From: Alphaproteobacteria bacterium
Lineage (GTDB): Bacteria > Pseudomonadota > Alphaproteobacteria > GCA-2746255
Assembly (NCBI GenBank): GCA_965249135.1
Contig: OZ252220.1
Coordinates: 384,001-448,000 of the forward strand
DNA length: 64,000 bases
Reading direction: 5' to 3'
Shown: piece after piece, positions 4,069-64,000 of the stretch
Layout of the letters: each line of letters begins with the position of its first letter
Numbering within the stretch: the stretch's first letter is position 1
Notes under the pieces: model-generated
The model's database searches: none
Seen by the model: the letters and a program-made list of their open reading frames with translations, nothing else
What the model was told of the DNA's origin: nothing
Position numbers and translations under genes: made by a program

Positions 4069-4237
4069 GGTTGAGGATCCTTTGGTCTCGAAGTTACCGC
4101 CTAAGTGAAAGATAGACCTTCCAATAGGTGGAAGGTCAACCGAAGAATACGGCCAGGAAGAAGGATTGACGTACCGTCTCGCTCCCTCTCTCATGGGGCC
4201 GGCATTGCCACCTCATATGGGATGAATACGGGTTTCC

Positions 4238-5437
4238 ATGGTCGATTTCTCCCTTTCTCCGGAAATCCGCGACTTGCAGGTGCGCATCCGCGCCTTCGTC
4301 GCCGAACGCATTCTTCCCTTGGAGGCGGATCCGGCTTCCTTTGATGCCTACGAAAACATCGCCCCCGACCTTCTCGAAAAATTGCGTGGCGAGGCGAAAA
4401 GCCAGGGTCTCTGGGCGCTTCAGATGCCCAAGGAACGTGGCGGCCAGGGCTTGAACATGGCAGGCCTGGCGGTTGCCTATGAGGAGATGGGCCATTCCAT
4501 CTTCGGGCCCGTCGTCTTCAATGCGGCGGCGCCCGATGACGGCAACATGCTGCTGCTGAACCGCATCGGAACCGAGGCGCAGAAGGATCGCTGGCTGCAG
4601 CCGATCATCGATGGCGAGCTGCGCTCTGCCTTCGCGATGACGGAGCCGAACCCCGGCGCCGGCTCCGATCCGGGTGCGATGCGCACCGTCGCTACGAAAG
4701 AAGGCAAGAACTGGATCGTCAAGGGCGAGAAGTGGTTCACGACCGGGGCCGGAGTGGCGAAGCATTTCGTTCTCGTGGTCCGCACGTCGGACGATGAAAG
4801 ACGAGGCTTGAGCGCCTTTCTCTTCCATGGCGACCAGCCGGGCTGGGAGATCACGCGCCGCATTCCGATCATGGGACCGGAGGAGCATGGCGGGCATTGT
4901 GAGCTTCGCTTCGACGGCCTGGAAATCCCCGATGAGGCGCGACTCTTAGGAGTCGGCGACGGGCTCAAGGTCACCCAGATCCGTTTGGGCACGGCACGGC
5001 TCACCCATTGCATGCGCTGGCTCGGCATGGCGAAGCGGGCGCTGGAGATCGCCAGCCACTATGTCCGTTCGCGCGAGAGTTTCGGGATGAGGCTCTCCGA
5101 ACACGAAGGCGTCCAGTGGATGCTGGGGGAGGCGGCAAAGGAAATCGCGGTAGGCCGGCTGCTCACCCTGCACGCGGCCTGGAAACTGGATCAGGGGGAT
5201 TTCGCCCGCAAGGAGGTGGCGATGGCGAAGATCCAGGTCGCCGATACGCTGCACAAGGCGGTGGACACGGCGCTTCAGCTTTGCGGGGCGAAGGGCTACT
5301 CGAAGGACATGCCCCTTGAATGGATGTACCGCTATGCCCGTCAGGCGCGCCTCGTCGACGGTGCGTCCGAGGTCCACAAGATGGTGCTGGCCCGATTCCT
5401 GATTCAGGAAGGGAGGGAGTTCTGGTCGTGGGAGTGA
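4238..5437 (+). CDS. Acyl-CoA dehydrogenase (LvaC/ACAD10-11-like)
   Basis: AFAMTEP...GSD, GEKWF, RLVDGASEVH motifs. Confidence 0.9.
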   Translation: MVDFSLSPEIRDLQVRIRAFVAERILPLEADPASFDAYENIAPDLLEKLRGEAKSQGLWALQMPKERGGQGLNMAGLAVAYEEMGHSIFGPVVFNAAAPDDGNMLLLNRIGTEAQKDRWLQPIIDGELRSAFAMTEPNPGAGSDPGAMRTVATKEGKNWIVKGEKWFTTGAGVAKHFVLVVRTSDDERRGLSAFLFHGDQPGWEITRRIPIMGPEEHGGHCELRFDGLEIPDEARLLGVGDGLKVTQIRLGTARLTHCMRWLGMAKRALEIASHYVRSRESFGMRLSEHEGVQWMLGEAAKEIAVGRLLTLHAAWKLDQGDFARKEVAMAKIQVADTLHKAVDTALQLCGAKGYSKDMPLEWMYRYARQARLVDGASEVHKMVLARFLIQEGREFWSWE

Positions 5438-9377: not shown

Positions 9378-9396
9378 CGCCTATCCTTTAAGCCGC

Positions 9397-11097
9397 CTAG
9401 AAGACCGGCGTTTCGCGATAGGTCCCCCAAAGCTCCCTTAGGGCCTCGACGATGTCGCCCATGGAGGCGCCTGCCTTCACCAGCTCGACGGTGAGCGGCA
9501 TCACGTTCTTCGTTTCGTCCTTCGCCACCTCGACGAGTTCCTTCAACAATTGCTGAACCTTCGCTTCGTCGCGGTCTTTTCGCACCTGGTTCAGCCGCCC
9601 GACCTGGCGTTCCGTGATGGTCTCGTCGTGGGCGTGGAGTTCCACGTCCAGCTTTTCGTCTTCTTCCGTGAACCGGTTGACGCCGATCAGCGGGTATTCG
9701 CCGCTCGCCTTCTTCGTCGCCGTCTCGTAGGCAAAATCGGCGATCTGGCGCTGGAACCAGCCTTCCTCGATCAGCTTCACCGTGCCGCCATGGGCATCGA
9801 CCTCGTCGAGGATGCGGAAGGTTTCCTTCTCGAAGTAGGTCGTCAGGTTCTCGACGTAGTAGGACCCGCCCAATGGGTCGGCGACTTGGCTCACGTTCGA
9901 TTCCTCGGCGATGACCTGCTGGGTGCGAAGCGCCAGCTTCATCGCCTCTTCCGTCGGAATGGCGAAGGCTTCGTCCATGCCGTTCGTGTGCAGGCTTTGG
10001 GCGCCGCCCAGAACCGCAGACAAGGCCTGCAAGGCCGTCCGGATGATGTTCACTTGATACTGCGGCTTGGTGAGCGTGGCTGCCGCCGTTTGACAGTGGA
10101 AACGTAGCCGCATCGATTCCGGGGATCGAGCCCCGAAGCGCTCCTTCATGATCTTCGCGTAGATGCGGCGTGCCGCCCGGAACTTGGCGATCTCCTCGAA
10201 GAAGTCCCGTTGGCAGACGAAGAAGAAGGAGAGGCGGGGCGCGAAGTCGTCGACGTCGATGCCGGCCTTCGTCACCTCGTCCACATAGGTGATCGTGTTC
10301 GCCATGGTGAAGGCGAGCTCCTGCAGCGGCGAGGAGCCGGCCTCCGAGATGTGATAGCCGGAGATGTTGATCGGGTTGAAGCGCTGCATGTGCTCGGCGC
10401 AGAACGTGATGCAATCGCGCACGATGCGCACGGAGGGCCGGATCGGGTAGATCCATTCCTTTTGCGCCATGTACTCCTTCAGGATGTCGGCCTGGATGGT
10501 GCCGGCAAGCCGATGGGGGTCGAAGCCGCGCTTCTCGCCAAGGGCGTAGTACATGGCGAGCAGGATCCAGGCCGAAGGATTGATCGTCATGGAGACGGAG
10601 ATGTTTTCCAGATCGATGTCGGCGTAGAGCGCTTCCATGTCGGCCAAGGTGTCGACGGCGACGCCTTCGCGGCCGACCTCGCCGGTGCTCATCGGGTGGT
10701 CCGAGTCGTAGCCCATCAGCGTCGGCATATCGAAATCCGTCGAGATGCCGGTCTGGCCCTGCGCAATCAGGTATTTGAAACGCCGGTTTGTGTCTTCACC
10801 CGTGCCGAAGCCGGCGATCTGGCGCATCGTCCAGGTGCGGCCGCGATACATGGTCGGGTAGGGGCCGCGGGTGAAAGGATATTGCCCGGGAAGCCCGATG
10901 TCCTCGATCGGGGTATCCTGCAGGTCGAGCGCCGTATAGACCCGCTTCACCGGAATGTCACCGAAGGTGGAAAAATCCTCCTTCTGTTCCGGCTGGCGTT
11001 TCAGGAAATGGGCGAGCTCTTCCTTCTCCCACTTCTCGAGCTGCTGCTCGAGCTGTTCGCGCGCCATGTTGTCCAGGGCCTGCTTCTCGTTGATCAT
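9397..11097 (-). CDS. hcmA: 2-hydroxyisobutyryl-CoA mutase large subunit, canonical copy
   Basis: TRGPYPTMY, RQIAGFG, RFHCQTAA, SLHTNG.DE; matches my recollection of Aquincola-type HcmA; no B12-binding domain (supplied by hcmB). Confidence 0.9.
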   Translation of the reverse strand: MINEKQALDNMAREQLEQQLEKWEKEELAHFLKRQPEQKEDFSTFGDIPVKRVYTALDLQDTPIEDIGLPGQYPFTRGPYPTMYRGRTWTMRQIAGFGTGEDTNRRFKYLIAQGQTGISTDFDMPTLMGYDSDHPMSTGEVGREGVAVDTLADMEALYADIDLENISVSMTINPSAWILLAMYYALGEKRGFDPHRLAGTIQADILKEYMAQKEWIYPIRPSVRIVRDCITFCAEHMQRFNPINISGYHISEAGSSPLQELAFTMANTITYVDEVTKAGIDVDDFAPRLSFFFVCQRDFFEEIAKFRAARRIYAKIMKERFGARSPESMRLRFHCQTAAATLTKPQYQVNIIRTALQALSAVLGGAQSLHTNGMDEAFAIPTEEAMKLALRTQQVIAEESNVSQVADPLGGSYYVENLTTYFEKETFRILDEVDAHGGTVKLIEEGWFQRQIADFAYETATKKASGEYPLIGVNRFTEEDEKLDVELHAHDETITERQVGRLNQVRKDRDEAKVQQLLKELVEVAKDETKNVMPLTVELVKAGASMGDIVEALRELWGTYRETPVF

Positions 11098-11100
11098 CGC

Positions 11101-12069
11101 CTATCCTTCCAACCGCATCTCGGCGAGCAGATCCACCGCCGCCGTGTATGGGTTCTTTTCATGGGCCATCATCTGGCCGATCAGTGCCGAGACTTTCCCG
11201 TCCCGGTGTTTCTTGAATTCGTCGCGCAAGATTTCTTCGGCCGTCTTCAACATCCGCCGTTCGGCGATTTGCTTTTTCCGTTCGGCGATTTCGCCGGAGG
11301 ATTCGAGGGCTTGCCGATGACGGTCGACCGCATCGACAAGCCCATCGATCCCCTCGGCCTTGAGCGCGCTCGTCGCGATCACCGGGACCTCCCAGCCGGA
11401 AGCCCCCGCAAGCGTTAATCCCAACGTCATCATAGCCTTTAAGTCGACGATCGTCCGGTTCGCATCCGGCCGGTCGCACTTGCTGACGACATGGATGTCC
11501 GCAATTTCAAGGATGCCCGCCTTGATCGCCTGGATGTCGTCGCCAAGACCGGGGGCGGAGATGACGACCGTCGTGTGCGCCGCCTGCACGATGTCCACCT
11601 CGTCCTGGCCGACGCCCACCGTCTCGATCAGGACCAAATCGAAACCGGCGGCATCCAGCACATCGACCGCATCCAGCGTGGATCGCGCCAGACCACCGAG
11701 CATGCCCCGCGTCGCCATGCTGCGGATGAAGATCCCCTTATCCCCCGAAAGCTCGTTCATCCGGATGCGATCGCCGAGGATGGCGCCGCCGGAGTAGGGG
11801 CTCGAGGGATCGATGGCGACGACGGCGATCTTGCGGTCGGACTTACGGACGGCGGCCATCAATTTTCCCATCAGTGTCGACTTGCCGCTTCCGGGAACGC
11901 CGGTGATGCCGACGATGTGCGCTCTTCCCGTGTGCCGATAGATATCGGCCATGGCCGGCCGGCACTCCTCGAGGCCCGACTCCGCGCGGGTGATCATCCG
12001 CGCGATCGCGCCGATGTCGGCGGCGAGCACCCGCTCGACGAGCTCAATGGAGGGGACGGCGTTGTTCAT
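11101..12069 (-). CDS. meaH: MeaB/MeaH G-protein chaperone of B12 mutase
   Basis: GVPGSGKS, DPSSPYSGGAILGDRIRM, ETVGVGQ. Confidence 0.92.
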   Translation of the reverse strand: MNNAVPSIELVERVLAADIGAIARMITRAESGLEECRPAMADIYRHTGRAHIVGITGVPGSGKSTLMGKLMAAVRKSDRKIAVVAIDPSSPYSGGAILGDRIRMNELSGDKGIFIRSMATRGMLGGLARSTLDAVDVLDAAGFDLVLIETVGVGQDEVDIVQAAHTTVVISAPGLGDDIQAIKAGILEIADIHVVSKCDRPDANRTIVDLKAMMTLGLTLAGASGWEVPVIATSALKAEGIDGLVDAVDRHRQALESSGEIAERKKQIAERRMLKTAEEILRDEFKKHRDGKVSALIGQMMAHEKNPYTAAVDLLAEMRLEG

Positions 12070-18740: not shown

Positions 18741-18960
18741 TTTTCAAGGCGACAGGTTTATGGGCAAGTCGCTGACTCGAAATGTCCGTGAGGTGCAAAG
18801 CTAACATTCGCCGCTTGGCCTCGAAGGTCTGCTTTTAGGCAGGAGGGGATGTTTGATGGGTTACGGAAACCGGAATTATATTGGATCGTTGACCGAGCAG
18901 GCCACTCCTCCGCACCCTAAGACTAGGTACGTCCGGCGGATCGAGGAACGGTGAGTAGTG

Positions 18961-20589
18961 ATGCACATAAGCCATGTAGAAATCAGCAATTTTCGGTCGC
19001 TGCAGTCGGTGTCGGTGCCGTTAAATACGTTCAGTGTTTTGCTTGGTGAGAACGATGTGGGGAAAACTTCATTCCTTCATGCTCTCGACAAGTTCTTCCT
19101 TGGTAAGAAGCTCGTTGATCCCAACGATTGGTTCAAGAAGGACACGGGCAACGAAATCCGCATTGTGCTCACTTTTCAGGAAGCTCCCCACGACAGGCTA
19201 AAAGATTTTTGTCGCAGCGATGGGTCAATCGTAGTGAGCAAAGTGTTTCCGTTCGGCGAAAGCCCCCAAATCAAGGCAATTCTCGACGACAATTCCGCTA
19301 TGAGCATCCCAGGGCCGATACTGAGCAAGTGGTTCTCATCGGAGCGATTTCACTTCATTCCTGTCCGTCGTGACCTTGCAGTCCAGCTCTCAATGACCAA
19401 GACCGCTCTTCTCGGAAAAATGCTACGGGCTCGAATGAAGGAAAAACTTACAGATGGGGGCACCAAGACATCTCTTGAAGAACTGGAACACCTCCTTATG
19501 GATTCAATCTCCGAGCCGAGAACAATGCTTGAGAACTTTCTGCGACAGCAGATGCACGATAATGCTGTCCGACTCGGATTTGACGATCTCGAAATCGATC
19601 CGGTGGAGGGGGTCAAGTTCGTTGTGAACTTGTCTGATGATCGCGTAGATAACGTGAAAATTGAAAATCGGGGTGCGGGAACACAGAATAACTTGATCAT
19701 CGCTCTTTTCCGGTTGGTCGCTGACCTTGCTGCCGAGGGCTACCTAATCTTGGCGATGGAGGAACCCGAAAATAGTCTTCATCCGAAGGCACAACGTCAG
19801 CTCTTGTCGGTAATCCAAGAGATTAGCGTCAAATCGCAGGTTATCGTCACCACCCATTCACCTGTATTCATCGATCGGAGCCGTTTCGAGAACAATGTCC
19901 TAATGACACGTACTGCCAGCGGGAACACCGTTGCTAAGACGTTCGATGTTTCGTTACTCGATGAGGTCCGAACCGATCTCGGAATACGGGCGTCAGACGC
20001 GCTCCTTAAGGGCGGTGGAAACTGCGCGATATTAGTTGAAGGTAGTACAGAGGAGGATGGATTTCCAACCTTCATGGAGATGTGTGGAATGAGTGAATTC
20101 CACTTGGGTATCGCAATCATCAATATGAACGGCAGCGACTCTAAAAGAGCCGAAACAATCGCCCGATTACTCTACGCATATGATATCCCCTGCATCATTG
20201 TTTTTGATCGAAATGCAGAAAACGCGGCTAAGGATTTAGAGCGCGCAGCAGCAGCCTCGCTCCCAAACATTAAAAAAGTGTTCTGCCTGAGGAAGGGCAA
20301 CATCGAAGATTACTTTCCCCTTGAAATTATTGCGGATGTCATCAATCGCGAATTAAGTCCGACAAAGGAAGTTACCGTAACTGATTTCGATTCGAGCAAG
20401 TCGGGACAAGACCGTCTCAATGATTTCAAGAAGGTTATGTACGAACACGGAGCTGGCGGATCCACCAGGTACTTGAAAAGACTCCTCGGTGGTCTCGGGG
20501 CCAGGTTGATAAAGGAACGAGCTATACCCCTCGATCCTGAACTTGTTGAAATATTCAACACTGTTAAGGCAATTGCCGATCCGGATTAG
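18961..20589 (+). CDS. OLD-family ABC-ATPase/TOPRIM nuclease (putative anti-phage)
   Basis: ISNFRS, Walker A GENDVGKT, Walker B EEPE..LHP, TTHS, TOPRIM ILVEG..EE, IEDY; visibly lower GC than its flanks. Confidence 0.85.
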   Translation: MHISHVEISNFRSLQSVSVPLNTFSVLLGENDVGKTSFLHALDKFFLGKKLVDPNDWFKKDTGNEIRIVLTFQEAPHDRLKDFCRSDGSIVVSKVFPFGESPQIKAILDDNSAMSIPGPILSKWFSSERFHFIPVRRDLAVQLSMTKTALLGKMLRARMKEKLTDGGTKTSLEELEHLLMDSISEPRTMLENFLRQQMHDNAVRLGFDDLEIDPVEGVKFVVNLSDDRVDNVKIENRGAGTQNNLIIALFRLVADLAAEGYLILAMEEPENSLHPKAQRQLLSVIQEISVKSQVIVTTHSPVFIDRSRFENNVLMTRTASGNTVAKTFDVSLLDEVRTDLGIRASDALLKGGGNCAILVEGSTEEDGFPTFMEMCGMSEFHLGIAIINMNGSDSKRAETIARLLYAYDIPCIIVFDRNAENAAKDLERAAAASLPNIKKVFCLRKGNIEDYFPLEIIADVINRELSPTKEVTVTDFDSSKSGQDRLNDFKKVMYEHGAGGSTRYLKRLLGGLGARLIKERAIPLDPELVEIFNTVKAIADPD

Positions 20590-20611
20590 GTTCGGAACAC
20601 CGGCTAGGAAG

Positions 20612-20755
20612 GGGCGGGCGCATGATCATCCCCGTCGGTCCATTGGAGGGCACCCAGGAGTTGCTCGTCATCGAGAAGGATCTTGAGGGCGTCTTGCGCA
20701 AACGAAGCGTGCTGACGGTTCGTTTCTCTCCCCTGCAGGGCGGAGGCCGGATCTA
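20612..20755 (+). repeat. 144-bp direct repeat, right copy (orphan pcm 3' fragment)
   Basis: Duplicate of 18596-18739. Confidence 0.95.
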
Positions 20756-20765
20756 GCCGCCGGAT

Positions 20766-21710
20766 CTAACCAGCGGGTGGCGGGTTGATGGCCTGGTGCT
20801 CGATGAGCCAGTTGCGGCTCACCCGGATGATCGTCTCCATCAGCTCGCGGTCGCCCGGCATCATGTGATCCGATTTTAATGTCACGATCGTCTTCGGCTC
20901 CGGCAGCAACGCGCGCAGCCGTTCGACCGTCTCGAAGGGCACGAGGCGATCGTCGCTGCCGTTCAGCAGCAGGAATTCCCCTTTCAGATGGGGAAGGTGA
21001 TGGACCGGCTCGAGCTCACGCAAGCCAAGCACGGCAAGACCGGTAAGCGTACCCCGAAGCCACGCCGGTTCCTTGCGAAAGGCGAACCGGAAGATCGGTG
21101 CAAGATCGGCCCCGCCATAGGCGATGATCGAGGGGCCGATCCGCATCCCATGCAGGCGCGCCATGTGATGGACGGCGGGCAGGTAGAGCGCGCCGAGGCT
21201 GAAGCCGAGCAGGCTGGTCCGCCCGTCCGACCAGGCTTGCCCGCGTGCCCAGCTGAGGACGGCAAGGATTTGGGCCGGCACCTGGCGGGAGGCCCGCCGG
21301 GCGGCCAGCATCCGTCGCGGCCACCATGCTTCGTACCAGGCCTCCCTCGACAAGGGATAGTCATAGCCGATCACCGCGTTTGCGCCCGCCTTCGGCACCT
21401 CAAAGATGCTGCGCTTGCCGGTGTCGAAACCGCCAAGCAGGATCACGGTGGCAAGGCCGCCTTCCGGCGTCGCCTCGGGCAGGCTTAAGGAGATCTCGAC
21501 CGCATCGAAGCCTTCGAGGCCAAGGGTGATGGCCGTACACACGCGGTGCGGCTCGCACGCCATGGGCTGTTCGCGTAGCAGGCGCGCCGGCGGGATATTG
21601 TCTTGGATGAGCGCCAAGGGGTCTTTCATCTTTTCATGGCCGATCCAGCCACCAAGGAAGAGGATGCCGGCGCCCAAGACGAAAAGAATACCGAGAAGAA
21701 GTGTTTTCAT
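20766..21710 (-). CDS. Membrane-anchored alpha/beta-hydrolase-fold protein
   Basis: N-terminal TM segment, GFSLG nucleophile elbow, NGSDD..VP, SDH. Confidence 0.65.
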   Translation of the reverse strand: MKTLLLGILFVLGAGILFLGGWIGHEKMKDPLALIQDNIPPARLLREQPMACEPHRVCTAITLGLEGFDAVEISLSLPEATPEGGLATVILLGGFDTGKRSIFEVPKAGANAVIGYDYPLSREAWYEAWWPRRMLAARRASRQVPAQILAVLSWARGQAWSDGRTSLLGFSLGALYLPAVHHMARLHGMRIGPSIIAYGGADLAPIFRFAFRKEPAWLRGTLTGLAVLGLRELEPVHHLPHLKGEFLLLNGSDDRLVPFETVERLRALLPEPKTIVTLKSDHMMPGDRELMETIIRVSRNWLIEHQAINPPPAG

Positions 21711-21740
21711 CGAGACTTCCTCCGATCCTTCGGCTTCCTC

Positions 21741-21782
21741 ATTCCCAGGGCGCCAATTCCCAGGGCGCCAATTCCTAGGGCG
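21741..21782. repeat. 15-bp tandem repeat ATTCCCAGGGCGCCA x~2.8
   Basis: Seen directly, upstream of the hydrolase start. Confidence 0.8.
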
Positions 21783-21891
21783 AAGGGATAAGGATTGTCG
21801 CACGAAGCGGAGGAAAGGGAAGGGCCGGACCTTTTTGGCCAGACCTTTCCTTGTTAGGCCAGGCCCTTCCTTGAAAACTGGCCTTGAAAAC

Positions 21892-21967
21892 TGGCTCCCC
21901 GGGTCGGACTCGAACCAACGACACAGCGGTTAACAGCCGCTTGCTCTACCAACTGAGCTACCGGGGA
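21892..21967 (-). tRNA. tRNA-Asn(GTT)
   Basis: TCCCCGGTAGCTCAGTTGGTAGAGC...CTGTTAA...GGTTCGAGTCC...GGGGAGCCA, 76 nt. Confidence 0.96.
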
Positions 21968-22159
21968 TCATCGGACGCGACCGAGCAAAACCGCGCATCG
22001 CACCGTTTCGCTATATAGCAGAGCCCGCAATACCTTGCCAGCATCCGATGCGCCTTCACAAAAGCTTAAACGCCCGGAAATCCTGGGGGAATGGCGGAAT
22101 CTTGCTATGCTTGTGTCGGCGTGAAGGAACGGCAAGGAGAACCGAAACGTGTCGCAACG

Positions 22160-22360
22160 ATGGCGGCGTTTAAAAGCCCGGGCGTGGTGCGCCGGGCGAC
22201 GTTCGTGGCAATCGTCGTCGGGACCCTTTTGAACCTGATTAACAATTATGGCGTTTTCTTGGGCGAGGCGCCGAGCCTTACCTTGGCCATGAAGATGGGC
22301 CTGACTTATATAGTGCCGTATGGGGTCTCAAGCTATAGCCAGGCTTTTTTAACTCCTTAA
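22160..22360 (+). CDS. NrtS-family small membrane protein
   Basis: RA..VAIVVGTLLNLIN...LTYIVPY.VSSY pattern. Confidence 0.7.
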   Translation: MAAFKSPGVVRRATFVAIVVGTLLNLINNYGVFLGEAPSLTLAMKMGLTYIVPYGVSSYSQAFLTP

Positions 22361-22430
22361 CCATTTCAGGCTAGAGAGGAAGGGCCAAGCTGGAGGTGAA
22401 AAGACCGGCGCAGGTTCGGGCATGGAGTGC

Positions 22431-22504
22431 TGGAGGCGCGGGCCGGAATCGAACCGGCGTACACAGATTTGCAGTCTGCTGGATAACCACTCTCCCACCG
22501 CGCC
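22431..22504 (-). tRNA. tRNA-Cys(GCA)
   Basis: GGCGCGGTGGGAGAGTGGTT...CTGCAAA...GGTTCGATTCCGGCCCGCGCCTCCA, 74 nt. Confidence 0.96.
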
Positions 22505-22675
22505 GGTTGTTTTTCGTGTTGGGCTTGAATACCCCGGAAGGGCCAGAGATATAGGACCTGACCAAAGGGCGGTCAAGCAACGCGAAGCCCTTGAAAACCC
22601 GGCTTCCGAGCGTCGTTGTGTTCGCAACGTCCGGAAAGTATAAACGGTTCCCCGATTGATCGATCGAGAGATTTC

Positions 22676-23332
22676 ATGACCGATTTTGCTGCCGCCCGAC
22701 GGAACATGGTGGATTGCCAGTTGCGGCCGCATGAGGTGGCCGATCCGGGCATTATTGCCGCCATGCTCGACGTGCCGCGCGAGCGTTTCGTGCCCCCAAA
22801 CTTTCAGGGTGTCGCCTATATCGATGAGGACTTGGCCGTCGGCGAGGGACGCTACGTGATGGAGCCGATGGTGCTCGGGCGGCTCTTGCAGCTTGCCGAG
22901 ATCGGGCCCGACGACGTCGTGCTCGATATCGGCTGTGGCAGCGGCTATTCGGCCGTCGTGATCGGGCGTTTGGCGGGCACGGTCGTTGCCCTTGAGAGCG
23001 ATCCCGCCCTGGCAGCGACGGCAAGCGAACGGTTTACCGAGTTCGATTGCGACAACGTGGCCGTCGTGGAGGGGGCGCTGGCAGAAGGCTGCCCGGCCCA
23101 GGCCCCCTTCGATGTGATTTTCATCGACGGCGCCGTGGCGGAAGTGCCGGCGGCGATCACCGATCAGTTGAAAGAAGGCGGGCGTTTGGTAACGGTCGTG
23201 ACGGCCAAGGCGCGGGTCGGCCAAGGCGTCGTCATGATCCGCTCCGGAGACTGCGTGGGGTGCCGCGCCGTCTTCGACGCGGCAACGCCGCTCCTGCCGG
23301 GTTTCGCGGCCAAGGAAGAGTTTGTCTTCTAG
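22676..23332 (+). CDS. Protein-L-isoaspartate O-methyltransferase family protein
   Basis: ARRNMVDCQLRP, VPRERFVP, DIGCGSGY, FVF end; conserved position upstream of tolC-popZ. Confidence 0.88.
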   Translation: MTDFAAARRNMVDCQLRPHEVADPGIIAAMLDVPRERFVPPNFQGVAYIDEDLAVGEGRYVMEPMVLGRLLQLAEIGPDDVVLDIGCGSGYSAVVIGRLAGTVVALESDPALAATASERFTEFDCDNVAVVEGALAEGCPAQAPFDVIFIDGAVAEVPAAITDQLKEGGRLVTVVTAKARVGQGVVMIRSGDCVGCRAVFDAATPLLPGFAAKEEFVF

Positions 23333-47745: not shown

Positions 47746-49669
47746 GTGCGCCCCGACGGCGCGTAACACCAGTGGAGGAAGGATCCACCCAGACAGTTGT
47801 CGGTTTGATCTGGGAGCTGACAGGCGGTCTTGTCGGGTAACCGGCGGGACCGAAGTCCTGTGACAAAGGCCGCCTTGGGCGGTTGAGCGACCTTGCGGGC
47901 CGAACGCGAGTGAAGCCTGAGCAGGCCTCGAAAGTGAAGATATGGACGCCGACCCTCCTGAGATTAGGGGAAGGCCGCGTGGAACGGGGGAGTAACCGAC
48001 GAATGCACCCGTTCCGGTCCGCCGGGGTAGTGGGCACGGCACGCAAGGAAGGTGATACGGGTAATCGGGGGAGGCCCGTCGCGGGCGAGGGTAGCGGCCT
48101 CAACGTCACCTCGGGTGGCGGCGCGGGCGGGAATCGGAAAGGGTGATAGTACCGTTGATGCCGGGTAATGCCGGCGGAGGGAAGCACCCTTACTTCTGGT
48201 GCGCTTTTGACGGAGAGGAGGCGGGGTGATTGGCGATGCGCCTGCAAACACCTGAAAAGATCCGGACTCTCCAGAGGAAGCTCTATCTCAAGGCGAAGGC
48301 GGAACCGGACTTCCGCTTCTACCTGCTCTACGACAAGGTCTATCGCGAAGACATCCTGTTCCATGCCTACCGACTGGCGCGGTCCAACAAGGGCGCGCCG
48401 GGGGTGGATGGACAGAGCTTCGAGGAGATCGAGGCGATGGGGCTGGAGGGGTGGCTGTCCGGGATCAGGGACGACCTTCGCGCCAAGACGTACAGACCTG
48501 AGCCGGTGCGGCGGGCGATGGTCCCAAAGCCCGGCGGCGGCGAACGACCGCTCGGCATCCCGACGATCCGGGACCGGGTGGTGCAAGGCGCCGTCAAGCT
48601 CGTGATCGAACCGATCTTCGAGGCCGATCTCGAGCCCAGTGCCTATGGCTACCGACCGAAACGCTCTGCGGGCGATGCCGTCCAGGCGGTCCACAAGCTT
48701 CTCTGTCGCGGCTACACGGACGTGGTTGACGCGGATTTGTCCAAGTACTTCGATACGATTCCCCATGCGGAACTGATGCAATCGGTTGCGCGCCGGATCG
48801 TCGATCGCAACGTCCTGCGCCTGATCAAATTGTGGCTCAAGACACCGGTCGAGGAGACCGACGGGGATGGCAAGCGGCGCATGACGGGCGGCCGGGGGAG
48901 CACACGGGGAACCCCGCAAGGCGGGATTGTTTCGCCGCTGCTCGCCGCGCTCTACATGAACCGCTTTCTGAAGTACTGGCGGATCACCGGGCAGGGCACA
49001 AGGTTCCGCGCCGAGGTGGTGAACTATGCCGATGACCTTGTCATCCTCAGTCGCGGACACGCGAGGGAGGCCTTGGTCTGGACGCGGCAGGTGATGACCC
49101 GGCTGGGACTGACCCTGAACGAGGCCAAGACCAGCGTCCGCGATGGCCGCAAGGAGAGCTTCGACTTCCTGGGCTATAGCTTCGGCCCGCAGCGCTTTCG
49201 CAAGGATGGCCACTGGTATCTGGGGGCGAGCCCGTCCAGGAAGAGCGTGGCTCGGCTCAAGCTGAAGGTCCGAGGGCTCCTGCGGCCCGGCAACCAGGCA
49301 CCCTGGCCCGAGGCGCGACCAGCTGAACAGCGTGCTGCGCGGCTGGCCGCACTACTTCGGCTACGGGACGCGCCTGCCGGCCTATCGAGCGGTCGACAAT
49401 TACGTCTATGAGCGCGTGCGGCATTCTCTGGTCAGGCGTCACAAGGTGCCGTCGCGCGGCACCACGCGGTTCTCTGCTGGGACCGTGTTCGGGGATCTCG
49501 GCGTGCTTCGGCTGCGCCGGGTTCATCTTGGCCCCCCGCCGTGTGCCCCGGGATGAAGCCAGTCGGAAAGCCGGATGCGGGAAATTCGCACGTCCGGCTT
49601 GATGAGCGGGGAAGGGAAACGGAGTGATGCCAATGCGGTACAAACCACCGCGCCCTTCCTCGACTCTAC
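47746..49669 (+). mobile_element. Group II intron
   Basis: 5' GTGCG at 47746; domain V AGCCGGATGCGGGAAATTCGCACGTCCGGCTT at about 49569-49600; domain VI ending CGACTCTAC; rejoined flanks restore the host gene's stop codon. Confidence 0.92.
48236..49556 (+). pseudogene. ltrA: Group II intron RT/maturase (no En domain), frameshifted near 49313
   Basis: GAPGVDG, RPLGIPTIRDR, GTPQGG..SPLL, YADD, FDFLGY; domain X (LNSVLRGWPHYF) continues in another frame. Confidence 0.85.
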
Positions 49670-50089
49670 CTCTTCGACCGTCACCGTGATGACCCTCGAG
49701 ACCACGGGTGGGTCGTGGGGGATGTGGTTGTGGTCACCCAGAAGCATTTGCAGGCTGTGCTTGCCGGGCTCGAGGCTGATTTCCGCCTCCGTCTGGCCGC
49801 CGCCGAAATGCCGGTGCTGATCGTTTTTCGCGATCGGTTCGCCGAGTGGCGGCAGGCCGGTGTCGATCAGCAGGTGATGATGGCCGCCCTGCGCATGTTC
49901 GGTGCCGGCCGGTACGATCGTCAGGCCCTTCGCTCCGAAAACAAGTTTAAACGGGCTTTTCACGACGGCCCCATCGTTTGGTTCGATGAAGAACACCTCG
50001 CCCGAGGATTCCCGTTGCGTTTGTTGAGAGAAAATGACGATGGCCACCACCACCGCAATCGCAGCAAGGATGAGCAGGGATCGCTGCAC
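49523..50089 (-). CDS. DUF4399 domain protein with a 48-aa intron-derived C-terminal extension
   Basis: VFFIEP.DG, GGHHHLLID, HFGGGQTE, LEPGKH, GDHNHIPH; native end ITVTVEE at 49670. Confidence 0.85.
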   Translation of the reverse strand: MQRSLLILAAIAVVVAIVIFSQQTQRESSGEVFFIEPNDGAVVKSPFKLVFGAKGLTIVPAGTEHAQGGHHHLLIDTGLPPLGEPIAKNDQHRHFGGGQTEAEISLEPGKHSLQMLLGDHNHIPHDPPVVSRVITVTVEEVESRKGAVVCTALASLRFPSPLIKPDVRISRIRLSDWLHPGAHGGGPR

Positions 50090-50221
50090 GGCATTTTCCT
50101 TCGGTTGCTTTGCCGGTTTTACCCAGTCCCCGATAGGGGAAACGCTAGGCCTTTACCTTTGCCGCTTGTCAAAAGGCACAACGAAGACGCGGTCGGAACC
50201 GCCTGCCACCTGCAAATTTGT

Positions 50222-50818
50222 TCAGTTCTTCGGTGCCCTGGTGCCCTGATAGGTCCCTGGCCGGTCCGCCCCCGGAATGCCCCGGAGACCGCCGGAGCGG
50301 GATTTGGCATGCACGGTGATTTTCTTCGAAACCACGTAAGGCTTGAGAGGGACGCTGTTGTGATCGACCATCATGAGTTGCTCGGTGTGCTCGCCCACGG
50401 TCACCGTAATCTGCACATCCGCTTCCCCGGAAGTTCGGTTCACTATGTGAAGCACCATATTCTCCCCGTATAATTGGGAAGCACCAACTCCCGGCTTCGA
50501 CGGATCGCCATCGGTCAGGTTCGCCTGGTTTTTCCGATCGATAAAAGCCCCTTCTGGGACGGGCTGGCCGTGTGGCGGCAATTCATCGAGATCGACCAGA
50601 ACGACGACATGCCCACCGTCCTCATGCTCGACCCCTGCCTTGACACGCTTCATGTCCTTCACGCGCGCGATGACGGCGTGTGTGGGCCGTACAGTTTCCC
50701 CATCCTTCGGTGTGATGAAGGTTACCGATCCAATGGGTTCTGTTGGCTCGCATGCCGTGAGCGCCATGGCCGCCGCCAGCGACGCGACGGCAGCTAGGCT
50801 AGCCAGGCCCATTTTCAT
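50222..50818 (-). CDS. Divergent DUF4399-like lipoprotein
   Basis: Lipobox LTAC, VTFITPKDGETV, GGHVVVLVD, GEH..QL...DHN..P; ATG at 50818 with GGAG RBS. Confidence 0.65.
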   Translation of the reverse strand: MKMGLASLAAVASLAAAMALTACEPTEPIGSVTFITPKDGETVRPTHAVIARVKDMKRVKAGVEHEDGGHVVVLVDLDELPPHGQPVPEGAFIDRKNQANLTDGDPSKPGVGASQLYGENMVLHIVNRTSGEADVQITVTVGEHTEQLMMVDHNSVPLKPYVVSKKITVHAKSRSGGLRGIPGADRPGTYQGTRAPKN

Positions 50819-50896
50819 GGCTTCCTCCCTGATTGCATTCCGGTGTTCCCCCCGATCTATTGCCACTAAACTAGTAAATCCGTCAACCTTGGGCAA

Positions 50897-51748
50897 ATGG
50901 CAAAAATCGACCACCATACCTACTGCGAAGAGCAGGTCCGGCGCTTCGATCAAGACCGCTACCTTACTGCACTTTTCGCACCGGAGAAAGCAAGGCGAGG
51001 CCTTGCCGCCCTTTATGCCTTCAATCTGGAAATCGCCCGAATTCCGGAAGCCACGACGGAACCCCTGATCGGCGAGATCCGGCTTGAATGGTGGCGGGAG
51101 GCGATTGCCGGTGCCTATGCAGGAGCCCCCCGCCAGCATGCCATCGTTGCCTGCCTGGCCGAGGCCATCCATGCCCATGGCCTAACACGGGCCCATTTCG
51201 ACCGGCTGCTGGACGCGCGGTCGTTCGATCAGGAGCGCACGACCCCGGCCTCCCTCGAGGAACTAAAGGCCTATGCGGAGGCGACGTCTTCGGGCCTCGT
51301 TCGGCTCGCGCTCGAGATTCTGGGCGTGGGCGAAAACGAAGTCGCGGAGAAGGCGGCGCGCGGGATCGGTATCGCCTGGGCGTTGACCGGTCTGCTCAGG
51401 GCCGTTCCTTTTCATGGCCGCGCCGATCGCACCTACCTGCCGGGCGATCTCATGAAGGCGGCCGGGGTAAGCGTACGCCAACTTCAATCCGGAAAATCGA
51501 CGCCCGGCCTTGAGGGCATCGCGAAAACCCTTGCCGAGGAGGCGCACGCCAACCTTCGCATCGCCCGGCAGGGAAGGTCGGCGGTGCCGAAGGCGGCGGT
51601 GTCGGCCCTTCTGCTGGGGGCGCTGGCCGATGGCCACTTGCGCGTGCTTGCCAAGGCCGGTTACGACCTGTTCGACCCTAGGGTGCTGAAGCCGCAACCG
51701 TTTCGCGAGGCGCGGCTGTGGCTGCGGGCGCGGGCAGGGAATTACTGA
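50897..51748 (+). CDS. Phytoene/squalene synthase family protein (NDUFAF6-like)
   Basis: DQDRYL..LFAP, ALYAFNLE, IRLEWWRE. Confidence 0.88.
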   Translation: MAKIDHHTYCEEQVRRFDQDRYLTALFAPEKARRGLAALYAFNLEIARIPEATTEPLIGEIRLEWWREAIAGAYAGAPRQHAIVACLAEAIHAHGLTRAHFDRLLDARSFDQERTTPASLEELKAYAEATSSGLVRLALEILGVGENEVAEKAARGIGIAWALTGLLRAVPFHGRADRTYLPGDLMKAAGVSVRQLQSGKSTPGLEGIAKTLAEEAHANLRIARQGRSAVPKAAVSALLLGALADGHLRVLAKAGYDLFDPRVLKPQPFREARLWLRARAGNY

Positions 51749-60042: not shown

Positions 60043-60594
60043 ATGAAAATATGGACATTCCCGGCCCTGATTCTTGGCCTGTTCGGGCTGACGACACCTT
60101 CCGAAGCCGCCGACTTTGAGAACACGCTCTATCTCGACCTTGTGGGCGGCCGGGTGGTCATCGAATTGCGCCCGGATCTCGCCCCCAACCACGTCGCCCG
60201 GATCAAGGAGCTGGTGCGCGAAGGTTTCTACGATGGGCTGGTCTTTCACCGGGTGATCGTCGGCTTCATGGCCCAGACCGGCGATCCGCAAGGCAACGGG
60301 ACCGGCGGGTCCGGCAAGAACTTAAAGGCGGAATTCTCGGACGAGCCCCATGTGCGGGGCACCCTTTCCATGGCCCGGGCCCAGGACCCGGACAGCGCCG
60401 ACAGCCAGTTCTTCATCGTATTTGCGCCGGCCCCGTTCCTCGATGGCCAATACACGGTGTGGGGGAAGGTCACCTCCGGCATCGAAGCCGTGGACCAGAT
60501 CAAGAAGGGAAATTCCCAGGCCAACGGCAAGGTTACGGACCCGGACAGGATCTTACGCTTCCAGGTCGCGGCCGACGTCGAAACCGGGAAATAG
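60043..60594 (+). CDS. Cyclophilin-type peptidyl-prolyl isomerase (exported)
   Basis: Signal peptide, FHRVI.GFMAQTGDP, SMAR, SQFFI, YTVWG. Confidence 0.93.
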   Translation: MKIWTFPALILGLFGLTTPSEAADFENTLYLDLVGGRVVIELRPDLAPNHVARIKELVREGFYDGLVFHRVIVGFMAQTGDPQGNGTGGSGKNLKAEFSDEPHVRGTLSMARAQDPDSADSQFFIVFAPAPFLDGQYTVWGKVTSGIEAVDQIKKGNSQANGKVTDPDRILRFQVAADVETGK

Positions 60595-60640
60595 CTGGAA
60601 ACCTTCATGCCTTTGGGGGTAGGGGTGGGGCTCCTTGGAT

Positions 60641-60716
60641 GGGCCCGTAGCTCAGTTGGCAGAGCATCTGACTTTTAATCAGAGGGTCACAGGTTCGAAT
60701 CCTGTCGGGCTCACCA
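60641..60716 (+). tRNA. tRNA-Lys(TTT)
   Basis: GGGCCCGTAGCTCAGTTGGCAGAGC...CTTTTAA...GGTTCGAATCC...CACCA, 76 nt. Confidence 0.96.
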
Positions 60717-60740
60717 TTTAAACAGGCACGCGAACAACTT

Positions 60741-61226
60741 ATGCCTTCCTTCGATATCGTTTCCCGTACCGACTTGGCCGAAGTCGACAACGCCGTGCAG
60801 GGCGCATCGCGCGAGATCGCGACGCGCTACGACTTCAAGGGCAGCAAATGCTCGATCGAGCGGGCCGAGAACACGCTCACCATCAAGGCGGACGACGATT
60901 TCAAGCTGAAGCAGGTGCAGGAACTGTTGCGCGTCTATCTGGCCCGGCGCAAGGTGGACGCCGGCGCGTTTGATTTTGGAAAACCCGAGAAGGCCACCGG
61001 CAATTCACTGCGCCAGACGGTGACCATCAAGCAGGGCATCGAGCGCGAGCTTACCCAGCAGATCGTAAAGGCGATCAAGGGATCGAAGCTGAAGGTGCAG
61101 GCCGCCATCCAGGGCGACGCGATGCGCATCTCCGGAAAAAAGCGGGACAATCTGCAAGACGTGATCGCGCTGGTCAAAGCGCTAAAGATCACCCAGCCCC
61201 TTCAATACGTGAACTTCCGGGACTAA
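60741..61226 (+). CDS. yajQ: YajQ-family nucleotide/c-di-GMP-binding protein
   Basis: MPSFDIVS, RYDFKG, GKKRD.LQ, NFRD end. Confidence 0.95.
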   Translation: MPSFDIVSRTDLAEVDNAVQGASREIATRYDFKGSKCSIERAENTLTIKADDDFKLKQVQELLRVYLARRKVDAGAFDFGKPEKATGNSLRQTVTIKQGIERELTQQIVKAIKGSKLKVQAAIQGDAMRISGKKRDNLQDVIALVKALKITQPLQYVNFRD

Positions 61227-61232
61227 CTTAAC

Positions 61233-61529
61233 TCACGCCCCCTCGACGCCGACGCGCCGGCCCGCTTCTTGGAATTCTTCACGCTTGAAGGCGGGTACGG
61301 TCACGATGTGGCCGTAATTGTTCATCCGGTACCAGATCGAAAAGGCCAGCATCGCCTGGGCGTCCTTCGCCTCGACGAAGCCGACGAAGTCGTAGGGCCC
61401 CTGGACGTAGTTCGAGTATTCCATCGTGATGCCGAGCTTCTGGAACTGCTCGTAGACGATCTCCGTCCGGGTGAGCTGCTTGCCGATCCATTTCGGGTGG
61501 TGCTTGCCCAGCATGATGTATCTTGGCAT
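61233..61529 (-). CDS. GYD-domain protein (paralog 3)
   Basis: MPRY, LGI......QGPYDFV..VEA, T.PAF. Confidence 0.8.
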   Translation of the reverse strand: MPRYIMLGKHHPKWIGKQLTRTEIVYEQFQKLGITMEYSNYVQGPYDFVGFVEAKDAQAMLAFSIWYRMNNYGHIVTVPAFKREEFQEAGRRVGVEGA

Positions 61530-61543
61530 GGCCTCGCTCCTCT

Positions 61544-61849
61544 TTAGGCTTCTTCGTCCTTGGTGACGCCGATGCGTTTTCCGACCGCCTCGAATGCGGG
61601 CCGTTGAAAGACCGACATCGTCGTCATCTCGCCATAGCCTTCCGTCCGGTACCAGATCGAAAACGCCAGCATCGATTCGCCGTCCGGCGCATCGACGACG
61701 TCGATGAAGTCGTAGATGCCTTGGGTGTAGTTCGAGGATTTGATCTCAAGGCCGAGGTCTTTCACTTTCGCCGCGACCTTGTCCGTGCGTTCCGGCTGGC
61801 GGCCCATCCATGCTTCGTTGTGTTTGCCCATGATGACGTAGCGGGGCAT
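61544..61849 (-). CDS. GYD-domain protein (paralog 2)
   Basis: MPRY, YTQGIYDFIDVVDAPD. Confidence 0.8.
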   Translation of the reverse strand: MPRYVIMGKHNEAWMGRQPERTDKVAAKVKDLGLEIKSSNYTQGIYDFIDVVDAPDGESMLAFSIWYRTEGYGEMTTMSVFQRPAFEAVGKRIGVTKDEEA

Positions 61850-61882
61850 CGTTTTCCTCCCTTCGTTGCGCGCCTTTCCCGG

Positions 61883-62164
61883 TCAACCGATTCGTTTTGC
61901 AGCGCTCTCCAAGGTGGCTTCGTCGAAGGCCGGCATCGTGCTGATCCGGCCGAAGCCCTGCTTCGTGTACCAGAGCGAAAAGGCTAAGATTGCCTCGGCG
62001 TTCGGCGCCTCGACGACGTCGACGAAGTCGAACGCCCCTTGGGTGTAGTAGACGGACTCAAGCGTGATGCCGAGCTTTTCGAGCTCGGCACGCGCCGTTT
62101 TCGTCCGCTCCGCCTGGCACGTCACCCAATCCGGACCCAATTGTCCCAAGAGTACGTATTTCAT
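61883..62164 (-). CDS. GYD-domain protein (paralog 1)
   Basis: LGITLESVYYTQGAFDFVDVVEAP, TMPAF. Confidence 0.8.
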   Translation of the reverse strand: MKYVLLGQLGPDWVTCQAERTKTARAELEKLGITLESVYYTQGAFDFVDVVEAPNAEAILAFSLWYTKQGFGRISTMPAFDEATLESAAKRIG

Positions 62165-62257
62165 GAGTTCTCTCCCTGAATTTTGTGTCTCACCCTTGTT
62201 GCCTGCATAAATTTTGGCTTGGGGGAGTTTCGATTTCGAAAACCGTGCGCCTCATCC

Positions 62258-62539
62258 CTAGCAGGGCACGCTTTTACCTTCCTCCGGATCGAAGCAGCTC
62301 CCCGTCGGTTCGCAAGGATTGCACGGGTTGCAGCCGGCGAGCGTCGTGCCACCCTTCACCGCAGCCGGGTTCGGGCTTGGCATGGCCGAATTTAACTGCG
62401 GCGCCGCGTCTTGAGCCGAAAGGGCGGCTTCGGCGTAAGGGGCGGCGGACGTCATGGCGATCGCAGCGCCACCGGCGGCCAGCAGCAAGGGCAGGGCGGC
62501 GCCGGAAAAAAGCCGGGTTTTCGTGGATTTCTTTTGCAT
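62258..62539 (-). CDS. Exported Cys-rich peptide B (93 aa; ...LAGCNPCNPCEPTGSCFDPEEGKSVPC)
   Basis: GGGGGAAAG RBS before ATG 62539; signal-like N-terminus ending AEA; paralogous to 62568-62987. Confidence 0.75.
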   Translation of the reverse strand: MQKKSTKTRLFSGAALPLLLAAGGAAIAMTSAAPYAEAALSAQDAAPQLNSAMPSPNPAAVKGGTTLAGCNPCNPCEPTGSCFDPEEGKSVPC

Positions 62540-62567
62540 CGATCTTTCCCCCTGTTTCAAAAAGTTC

Positions 62568-62987
62568 TTATTTCGCATTCTCGCGCGGCCCGGAATGCGG
62601 CGTCATGAAGTCCCTGACGTCGGGCTGGGCTTCTTCGGTGTGCTTGGAGGTGCAGGGCACCGGCCGGCCGACGTCCAGATCGAAGCAAAGCTTCGTCGCA
62701 GCCTCGCTCGGGCCGCACGGATGGCAAGGGTTGCACGGATGGCAAGGGTTTGCCCCTTCGGCAAGGCGCTCATGCTTCACCGCCATTGGTTTCACCGCCA
62801 TTGGCTTCACCGCCTTCGGGTTCGGTTGGGTAGCGTTTGCGAAGGGCTGGGTGTCGGGTGCCAGGGCCGCTTCGGCGGAAAAAGTCGCAAACCCGATGAC
62901 GGCCGCCGCAGCGCCCGTGGCCAGCAGCAAAGCGGCGCCGGGTCGCCGCCTGGATGGTGAACGGGATTTCGTCAACTTTTTCTGCAT
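62568..62987 (-). CDS. Exported Cys-rich peptide A (139 aa; ...ANPCHPCNPCHPCGP...CFDLDVGRPVPC...)
   Basis: GGAG RBS before ATG 62987; signal-like N-terminus ending AEA; internal AVKPM 15-bp repeat; paralogous to peptide B. Confidence 0.75.
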   Translation of the reverse strand: MQKKLTKSRSPSRRRPGAALLLATGAAAAVIGFATFSAEAALAPDTQPFANATQPNPKAVKPMAVKPMAVKHERLAEGANPCHPCNPCHPCGPSEAATKLCFDLDVGRPVPCTSKHTEEAQPDVRDFMTPHSGPRENAK

Positions 62988-63166
62988 GGCTTTCTCCGTG
63001 CCGGCCATGAACCTTGGCTCCAGGGGCTTTTCGCTTCAAGGATAGCGGAAGGGGACTGCCTCTTGAAGCCCCGCCTCTTGAAGCCCCGGGAGCTTCGAAG
63101 CCGGGCTTTTTTGGGGCAGGGTTGGGCTATAATTGGGGCCAGATCGAACCGTTGCCTGGGCCTTTC

Positions 63167-63310
63167 ATGCCGTCCACCCGCCGCCGCAATCCCGTCGCCA
63201 AGAAGCTCGCCGCCAAGCGGTACCGCCCGAAGGTCGTCACGGACAAGACAAAATATACCCGCAAGACGAAACATAAGAAGAAGCGCACGACCCGCCGGCG
63301 CTCATCGTGA
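63167..63310 (+). CDS. 47-aa highly basic protein, ArfA-like
   Basis: RNPVAKKL...YRPKVVTDKTKYTRKTKH; TATAAT about 35 bp upstream. Confidence 0.5.
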   Translation: MPSTRRRNPVAKKLAAKRYRPKVVTDKTKYTRKTKHKKKRTTRRRSS

Positions 63311-64000
63311 ACCTCGGTCCACGACCAGGCGGAAGCCGATCAGGATGTGTTTGAGATTCCCCGGCCGCGGGTGCCAGGCGGCCGGCCGGCAGATGCCGCA
63401 GCCCTTGTCGTCCCACGAGCCACCACCTTTGACAAGGATGCGTTTCTGACCCGTGGCCGTCAGATCCTTGCCCACCAGCGTCTGCGTCCATTCGAACACT
63501 TGCCCTGCGGCATCCAGCATGCCGTAAGGGCTTGCCCCTTCCGGAAAGCTGCCGACCGGCATCGTGTCGAAGGGGCCAAGATCGTGGGTGTTCGCAAGTT
63601 CGGGCTGCCACACGTCTCCCCAGGGAAAGCGCCTTCCGTCCGTGCCGCGGGCCGCCTTTTCCCATTCCCTTGCCGTCGGCAGCCGCCACCGAAGACCGGT
63701 GCGAAGCGTCAGCCAACGGGCATAGAACTGGGCGTCGTCATAACTGACGAGGACGACGGGATGGTCTTCCCGGCCCTTGGGCGGCTTGCCATCGGCCCAA
63801 GCATGGCGGTGGGTACGCGCGTAAGGGTGGACCAGCCCGAACTGTTTCCAGGTTTCCGGCCGCACGTCCGGGGGCGGGTGGCCGGTATCGGTGATGAAGG
63901 CCGCATATTGGGCATTCGTGATCGGCGTCGTCGTAATGAAAAAGCCGGGCGTGGTAAGTTCCCGGCGCTCGACCTCGTTTTCGTACCACGCCGCCTGGCG
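63302..64000 (-). CDS. FGE-sulfatase (SUMF1/EgtB/PvdO) domain protein, 5' end outside window
   Basis: ITNAQYAAF, HPVVLVSYDDA, RLPTAREWEKAARG, FPWG, GQVFEWT, KGGGSW, IGFRLV; frame open to the window edge. Confidence 0.9.
   Translation of the reverse strand, partial: RQAAWYENEVERRELTTPGFFITTTPITNAQYAAFITDTGHPPPDVRPETWKQFGLVHPYARTHRHAWADGKPPKGREDHPVVLVSYDDAQFYARWLTLRTGLRWRLPTAREWEKAARGTDGRRFPWGDVWQPELANTHDLGPFDTMPVGSFPEGASPYGMLDAAGQVFEWTQTLVGKDLTATGQKRILVKGGGSWDDKGCGICRPAAWHPRPGNLKHILIGFRLVVDRGSR

Follow-up and report, generated by a model that had tools for sequence, protein, structure and literature searches.

A very rare family of putatively exported cysteine peptides with an invariant two-cysteine loop and a variable x-P-C tract, encoded next to GYD-domain genes in an alphaproteobacterium

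What could be the role of two short cysteine peptides that are encoded side by side, directly ahead of three genes for GYD-domain proteins? They lie towards the end of the window, by which we mean the whole stretch of 64,000 nucleotides of alphaproteobacterial DNA analysed here (contig OZ252220.1). An original prediction, made from the letters of this stretch, had described them as a paralogous pair with a repeated N/H-P-C core, and had proposed that they are either RiPP-like precursors or periplasmic metallothionein-like chelators, with the GYD trio as their partners. We call the two peptides A and B; the features of their locus are collected in Table 1.

Table 1. Features of the peptide locus in the window, listed by position (L001 is the related contig described in the text)
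Feature	Coordinates	Strand	Evidence and remarks
GYD-domain protein 3 (GYD3), 98 aa, last of run	61233..61529	-	PF08734 E 6.4e-11, 42.6 bits; no leader; L001 orthologue
GYD-domain protein 2 (GYD2), 101 aa	61544..61849	-	PF08734 E 3e-12, 46.8 bits; no leader; L001 orthologue after its B-type gene (B')
GYD-domain protein 1 (GYD1), 93 aa	61883..62164	-	PF08734 E 4.3e-16, 59.2 bits; no leader; no L001 counterpart
Peptide A gene (P0001)	62258..62539	-	93-aa precursor, 5 Cys, final residue is the last loop Cys; 4 homologous clusters
Invariant Cys-bracketed loop of A (C82-C93)	62261..62296	-	Alignment, motif count
x-P-C tract of A (C70-C76), 3 Cys	62312..62332	-	Sequence, motif count
Peptide B gene (P0002)	62568..62987	-	139-aa precursor, 6 Cys, heads run; 7 homologous clusters
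B-type tail, residues 113-139	62571..62651	-	Conserved His, acidic patch, F-M-x-P-H-S-G-P-R
Invariant Cys-bracketed loop of B (C101-C112)	62652..62687	-	7 residues invariant in 16/16
x-P-C tract of B, residues 80-91, 4 Cys	62715..62750	-	Perfect 18-bp tandem duplication: period 18, 2.0 copies, 100% matches
B spacer, 15-bp tandem repeat x2.7 encoding A-V-K-P-M units	62774..62814	-	Repeat scan; copy number varies in homologues
B leader, residues 1-40, putative Sec type	62868..62987	-	Basic n-region, about 20 hydrophobic residues, A-E-A before predicted cut; by inspection
Divergent intergenic region B/DUF7230	62988..63166		81% column identity with L001; 15-bp direct repeat at 63058-63088
DUF7230, 47-aa small basic protein	63167..63310	+	PF23876 E 7.6e-10; kept in L001; boundary, not part of the system
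FGE-sulfatase-domain protein, cut by window end	63302..64000	-	PF03781 E 1.4e-40; N-terminus beyond window

Both minus-strand ORFs are present as predicted, and A and B are real, paralogous coding genes. They align in BLASTP with 41% identity (E 2e-10), and that they are genes follows from their homologues, from divergence biased to third codon positions, from indels of whole repeat units, from Shine-Dalgarno-like sites and from GC3. The SD-like sites, GGGGGA for A and GGAGA for B, lie 6-10 nt ahead of the ATGs, in agreement with the ribosome-binding site that had been proposed for each. Both precursors start with MQKK, after which comes a basic n-region, and the remaining elements that had been described, namely a hydrophobic stretch running to A-E-A-A-L, a spacer with N-P-x-A-V-K, the x-P-C tract and C-F-D...V-P-C, are all there. 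Seven occurrences of P-C-x-P-C in the six-frame translation of the window, four of them in the A and B ORFs, compare with an expected mean of 0.56 in 100 first-order Markov resamples, and within the same translation the longer patterns C-x-P-C-x-P-C and C-F-D-x3-G-x2-V-P-C are confined to these two ORFs. A scan of genome contigs returned a single related locus, L001, on an alphaproteobacterial MAG contig; B differs from its homologue there at 29, 25 and 52 sites in codon positions 1, 2 and 3, and in a 41-codon core 20 codons are identical, with 11 synonymous and 10 non-synonymous differences. Whole repeat units account for the indels among the homologues in a 16-sequence alignment. GC3 is 0.74 in A as in B, 0.82 in gyrA and 0.78-0.87 in the three GYD genes. 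That GC-rich DNA produced A and B as ORFs by chance, or that they are antisense to a 286-aa plus-strand ORF (62185-63045) that overlaps both, has next to no probability: this ORF is without a Pfam match and its GC3 is lower (0.67), and the antisense reading is ruled out by the peptide homologues, with their invariant cysteines and whole-unit indels, and by the synonymous-biased pattern of divergence from L001.

Relatives of the pair are few. Word-seeded searches of 5.8 billion protein clusters yielded 4 A-type clusters (from 37 candidates) and 7 B-type clusters (from 212 candidates), 11 in total, and searching all 1.84 billion representatives of 50% identity clusters with a profile gave 5 proteins at E <= 0.001. 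The family set consists of 14 homologues beyond A and B (n=16), among them three distant members of 85-101 aa (P0014-P0016), and so far its members come from alphaproteobacterial metagenome genomes. Homologues with a conserved cysteine pattern had been called for by the original prediction, and these searches supplied them, the loop cysteine pair being invariant in all 16. At E <= 1 neither Pfam nor NCBIfam gave more than noise for any of the 16, and the family profile has no sequence match in the PDB (best E 0.13), in line with the suspicion that neither peptide belongs to a described family. The ESM Atlas contained no usable match for residues 72-139 of B, and the best scores for P0014 (<= 0.86) came without a family; plasmid sequences gave no tblastn match to B, PADLOC and PHROGs recognised neither the peptides nor the GYD proteins, and the repeat strings were not found in the biological literature searched. 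A and B thus appear to be members of a very rare, undescribed small family of exported cysteine peptides.

Export had been part of the original prediction, and inspection of the sequences agrees with it. An N-terminal hydrophobic stretch and a small-x-small site occur in every one of the 16 members, and basic residues precede the hydrophobic stretch in all except P0016, which has none there (15/16). A has the same layout as B, with about 20 hydrophobic residues and an A-E-A/A-L junction, and S-A-E-A-A-L occurs in 9 of the 13 A/B-type sequences. A and B therefore appear to carry Sec-type leaders, for which cleavage is predicted after A-E-A. Two other export routes were considered and rejected. 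An L-A-G-C resembling a lipobox (62330-62341 in A) stands directly before the x-P-C tract and is present in four of six A-type sequences and in no B-type one; at about 30 residues past A-E-A it is too distant from the leader for a normal lipoprotein site. A twin-arginine signal is suggested by R-R-R only in B and three close homologues, with none in P0010-P0016 or in any A-type sequence.

The only invariant columns of the 16-sequence alignment are the C, F, D, G, V, P and C of the 12-residue loop C-F-D-x3-G-x2-V-P-C, in which position 8, after the invariant Gly, is basic in 14 of the 16 members. B continues for 27 residues past V-P-C, and this tail, which the original prediction had not noticed, is the best conserved part of the family: its motifs (T-S-x-H, an acidic patch and F-M-x-P-H-S-G-P-R) are found in all eight B-type and all three distant members (11/11) and are absent from the 5 A-type sequences aligned. 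The A type stops at the last loop Cys in five of six sequences. It is a duplicate ending at the loop, the B type being the form with an added His/Met/acidic tail. An AlphaFold2 model built on the 16-row alignment is poor overall (mean pLDDT 52.8), and its sole secondary structure is a beta-hairpin (E100-103/E108-111) between the two invariant cysteines, in a block with pLDDT 69. From this weak model we infer a mostly disordered exported peptide with one disulfide-stapled hairpin.

The x-P-C tract behaves differently. Repeat and loop had both been counted as the conserved core of the peptides; this holds for C-F-D...G..V-P-C and does not hold for the repeat, which 3 of the 16 members lack and whose cysteine count varies between near-identical homologues. 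The tract carries no Cys in 3, two in 6, three in 2, four in 3 and five in 2 of the 16. B has 4 tract cysteines where the 94%-identical P0007 has 2, a difference of one 18-bp unit, and A has 3 where the 91%-identical P0003 has 5. Within every unit P and C are kept strictly, and the 13 A/B-type members all retain at least two units. The A-V-K-P-M units of the B spacer also vary in number, P0008 and P0009 having one fewer than B. Since the tract is missing from all three distant members, differs between proteins of 91-94% identity and consists in B of a perfect 18-bp duplication, it is a recent, slippage-prone accessory of one subclade and not the core of the family; it is confined to that subclade, stands ahead of the loop and grows and shrinks by tandem duplication of 9 or 18 bp. 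The distant members, being without the tract, imply that the ancestral function needs no extra thiols. In 4 of the 16 members the total of mature cysteines is odd, so that not all of them can be in intramolecular disulfides. A heme-binding role was rejected: the single CXXCH, C-N-P-C-H, does exist as had been noted, and it sits in the 139-aa upstream peptide B and not in A, where it had been placed; among the 16 members it occurs in B only, which leaves no basis for a c-type cytochrome or heme peptide.

On the minus strand the gene order is FGE-like, B, A, GYD1, GYD2, GYD3, and DUF7230, on the plus strand, separates the FGE-like gene from B. Starting at B and running through A, GYD1 and GYD2 to GYD3, successive gaps are 28, 93, 33 and 14 nt, and no minus-strand terminator-like site was found among these five genes; short gaps and lack of such a site fit one transcription unit from B through GYD3. 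The FGE-like gene is a neighbour outside this unit, because a conserved gene on the opposite strand, divergent from B, lies in between, and it is probably unrelated to the peptides. A promoter scan of the B/DUF7230 intergenic region found no sigma-70-like site, predicted RNA folding of the A-GYD1 spacer and of the region upstream of B was no better than that of shuffles, and Rfam models matched only a tRNA-Lys in 60500-64000, with no metal-sensing riboswitch. The direct repeat of this intergenic region has 2.1 copies with 100% matches, is present as a single copy in L001 and has a GC hairpin with a T-run (plus strand) alongside. The DUF7230 ORF is very basic and matches several PHROG families of unknown function, and its 3' end and the stop of the FGE-like gene overlap by 9 nt; the C-terminal part of the FGE-like protein contains a C-G-I-C pair after G-G-G-S-W.

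All three GYD proteins exceed the PF08734 gathering cut-off of 31.4 bits and are bona fide members of that family, a membership which explains nothing about the peptides. GYD2 is confidently modelled (pLDDT 89.4) as a beta-alpha-beta-beta-alpha-beta ferredoxin-like unit, for which a fold search returned generic matches only (ribosomal S6, olivetolic acid cyclase/DABB, Lrp/RAM and ACT; TM about 0.5-0.64); a homologue search found 3 proteins, and no sequence match to GYD2 was found in the PDB. As to function, the literature searched has only passing mentions of GYD. Two runs of complex prediction for GYD2 with residues 43-139 of B scored 0.00, which, being without controls, counts neither way.

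L001 is syntenic with the window (gyrA, coaD, cyclophilin, ssb and uvrA). Besides DUF7230 it has a single B-type gene and orthologues of two of the GYD genes, GYD2 and GYD3, and is without A and GYD1. An FGE-like gene is missing from the 5.2 kb upstream and the 10 kb downstream of its peptide match; at the site of the FGE-like gene of the window it has a 279-aa ORF (3948-4787, plus strand) without a Pfam family and with an N-run inside. Elsewhere, equal contig sizes suggest by inference that A and B types co-occur on three other contigs (566716, 11186 and 887 nt) and, likewise, that a B type sits with a GYD2 homologue on a contig of 64928 nt. The idea that the GYD trio are partners of the peptides is weakened: GYD genes do follow the peptide in both the window and L001, but the two loci are syntenic close relatives and do not amount to independent evidence.

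Among described systems the peptides appear most like the bufferin-type Sec-exported cysteine peptides, yet they match none of the corresponding profiles and have no MNIO or DUF2063 gene beside them. According to PMC12452194, bufferins and MNIO substrates are small, have a Sec signal peptide and functional cysteines, buffer copper in the periplasm and are modified in the cytoplasm before Sec export, and the Cys-repeat precursors called Buf_EGKCG vary in repeat number. A and B resemble the bufferins (Buf1/DUF2282, Buf2, Buf_EGKCG/oxazolins and 'CxxxxC' precursors) in the Sec leader, the cysteine peptide and the variable repeat number. They differ in that no Pfam or NCBIfam precursor model matches them, Buf_EGKCG and the CxxxxC types being compared by description, and in that the repeat unit has 3 residues (x-P-C) where that of Buf_EGKCG has 17, the family-wide element being a 2-Cys loop. 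Bufferin genes have MNIO (DUF692) and DUF2063 genes next to them, and often DoxX. MNIO, DUF2063, DoxX and radical-SAM domains were all absent by Pfam from 70 ORF translations of the window, which covers 62 kb on one side of the peptides and 1 kb on the other, and from 12 of L001; that no modifying enzyme is visible in the window, as had been remarked, is borne out by these translations, which include neither MNIO nor any other known RiPP enzyme.

Other resemblances are more remote. Like the bacterial metallothioneins (SmtA/BmtA, PmtA), A and B are short and Cys-rich, with few aromatics and CxxC spacing. Bacterial metallothioneins are not known to have a Sec leader, fold round a metal cluster and contain many more cysteines; the family has 2-7 Cys in about 50-100 mature residues, and A and B match neither PF02069 nor its relatives at E <= 1. 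A literature search on bacterial or periplasmic metallothioneins brought up nothing matching the A/B peptides. Periplasmic metal carriers of the MerP type are likewise exported with a CxxC thiol pair; they form a folded ferredoxin-like domain with one site, whereas A and B, with their CxxC-spaced thiol pairs, are predicted to be disordered except for one hairpin. The loop is also reminiscent of Bowman-Birk-type inhibitor loops, disulfide-stapled beta-hairpins of length 9, in being short, closed by two cysteines and provided with a Pro and a basic residue; it has no sequence relation to them, its length is 12 and it occurs in no protease context.

The explanation that we prefer, although tentatively, is that A and B are unmodified periplasmic peptides which combine a disulfide-stapled hairpin with a thiol tract that can expand and would serve to buffer soft metals or redox. 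They would be exported via Sec and their leader cut after A-E-A; the two invariant cysteines would close the beta-hairpin after export, and the x-P-C tract would add a number of thiols that varies between strains. These thiols may bind a soft metal, for example Cu(I), or buffer redox in the periplasm, in either case without enzymatic modification, and the three cytoplasmic GYD proteins would be co-transcribed with the peptides. Copy-number variation of the tract, taken together with the fact that no unit has lost its P or C, argues for a function of the capacity type. Against thiol buffering, no metal-homeostasis gene is adjacent, CopA/CopB-like genes being 58 kb off, and the CxxC pairs may simply be disulfides in an oxidising periplasm. 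The genomic context of this explanation is drawn from two closely related loci, the window and L001.

The ancestral form without repeats needs another function, and this favours the notion that the hairpin, with the tail in the B type, is an epitope that binds a partner in the periplasm or outer membrane, resembling, for instance, the loop of a protease inhibitor or serving as the ligand of a regulator, the x-P-C tract being a tolerated expansion of a Pro-rich linker. Such a binding or signalling peptide, which we consider somewhat unlikely, would account for the centring of conservation on the hairpin and tail, for the disorder and variability of the remainder, for the retention of nothing else in the distant members and for the basic residue of the loop. 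Pfam, NCBIfam and the PDB, however, revealed no similarity to an inhibitor or signalling family; moreover, a tolerated linker sits poorly with the strict P and C of the units and with the minimum of two of them in the A/B types, which suggest selection on the thiols.

It is decidedly unlikely that A and B are RiPP-like precursors, modified in the cytoplasm before Sec export by the GYD proteins or by an enzyme encoded elsewhere and yielding a periplasmic metallophore. A Sec leader with a cysteine peptide is the layout of bufferins (PMC12452194), in both the window and L001 the GYD genes follow the peptides closely and in the same orientation, one of the many generic matches of the GYD fold is to small DABB-type enzymes such as olivetolic acid cyclase, and the A type mostly ends exactly on its C-terminal Cys. 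However, RiPP enzymes and recognition domains of known kinds were found in neither locus, models of bufferins and other precursors give no match at E <= 1, the literature searched reports no GYD activity, and the linkage to GYD genes is limited to syntenic relatives. The RiPP half of the original prediction is hence left with no enzyme behind it, the FGE-like gene being set apart by DUF7230 and absent from L001, and for it to hold, A and B would have to be substrates of the GYD proteins or of a distant enzyme. A more specific form of it, in which A and B are an MNIO-independent counterpart of bufferins, their x-P-C peptides modified or escorted by the cytoplasmic GYD proteins before export to become a periplasmic thiol metallophore whose unit number is tuned by 9/18-bp slippage, seems to us highly improbable.

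We give hardly any credence to the proposal that the peptides are substrates of the neighbouring FGE-like enzyme, which would oxidise the tract cysteines. The sulfatase motif is C-x-P-x-R, the start of which the C-x-P units resemble, and the gene is on the same strand, 315 nt upstream; neither A nor B has an Arg at +4. The nearest solved relatives of the FGE-like fragment are ToxD (7spq) and CalU17, which are not true FGEs, DUF7230 intervenes on the opposite strand, and in L001, the one other genome examined, the peptide occurs without such a gene (1/1). Fusions of bufferin and FGE-sulfatase domains have been reported (PMC12452194), and apart from these the literature searched links no FGE-sulfatase to peptides of this kind.

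Returning to the preferred explanation of hairpin and thiol tract, if the tract does bind metal, A and B would represent a minimal analogue of the periplasmic copper buffers of bufferin type, one that needs no enzyme and whose capacity is set by repeat slippage. Any action of the GYD proteins on the peptides would provide a first role for a domain that is widespread and of unknown function. As it stands, the family is a well-delimited orphan of about a dozen sequences in billions, and we regard it as a modest lead.

Some further observations concern the rest of the window. Its sole metal-related context lies at 1049-3615 on the minus strand, where a CopA-like multicopper oxidase (592 aa) and a CopB copper-resistance gene occur by a DUF2231 membrane protein. 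Also on the minus strand, 7677-12069 encodes two tandem 566-aa paralogues of the methylmalonyl-CoA-mutase family, with a MeaB GTPase and a DUF3237 protein after them, and 49523-51178 two adjacent DUF4399 proteins (188 and 318 aa) beside a 525-aa ORF without a family. Finally, an OLD-like AAA_15/TOPRIM protein (543 aa), with a GC3 of 0.54 that is below that of its neighbours, is followed by ORFs of 345 and 291 aa without a Pfam family, and this segment (18958-23224) may be a small acquired or defence island.
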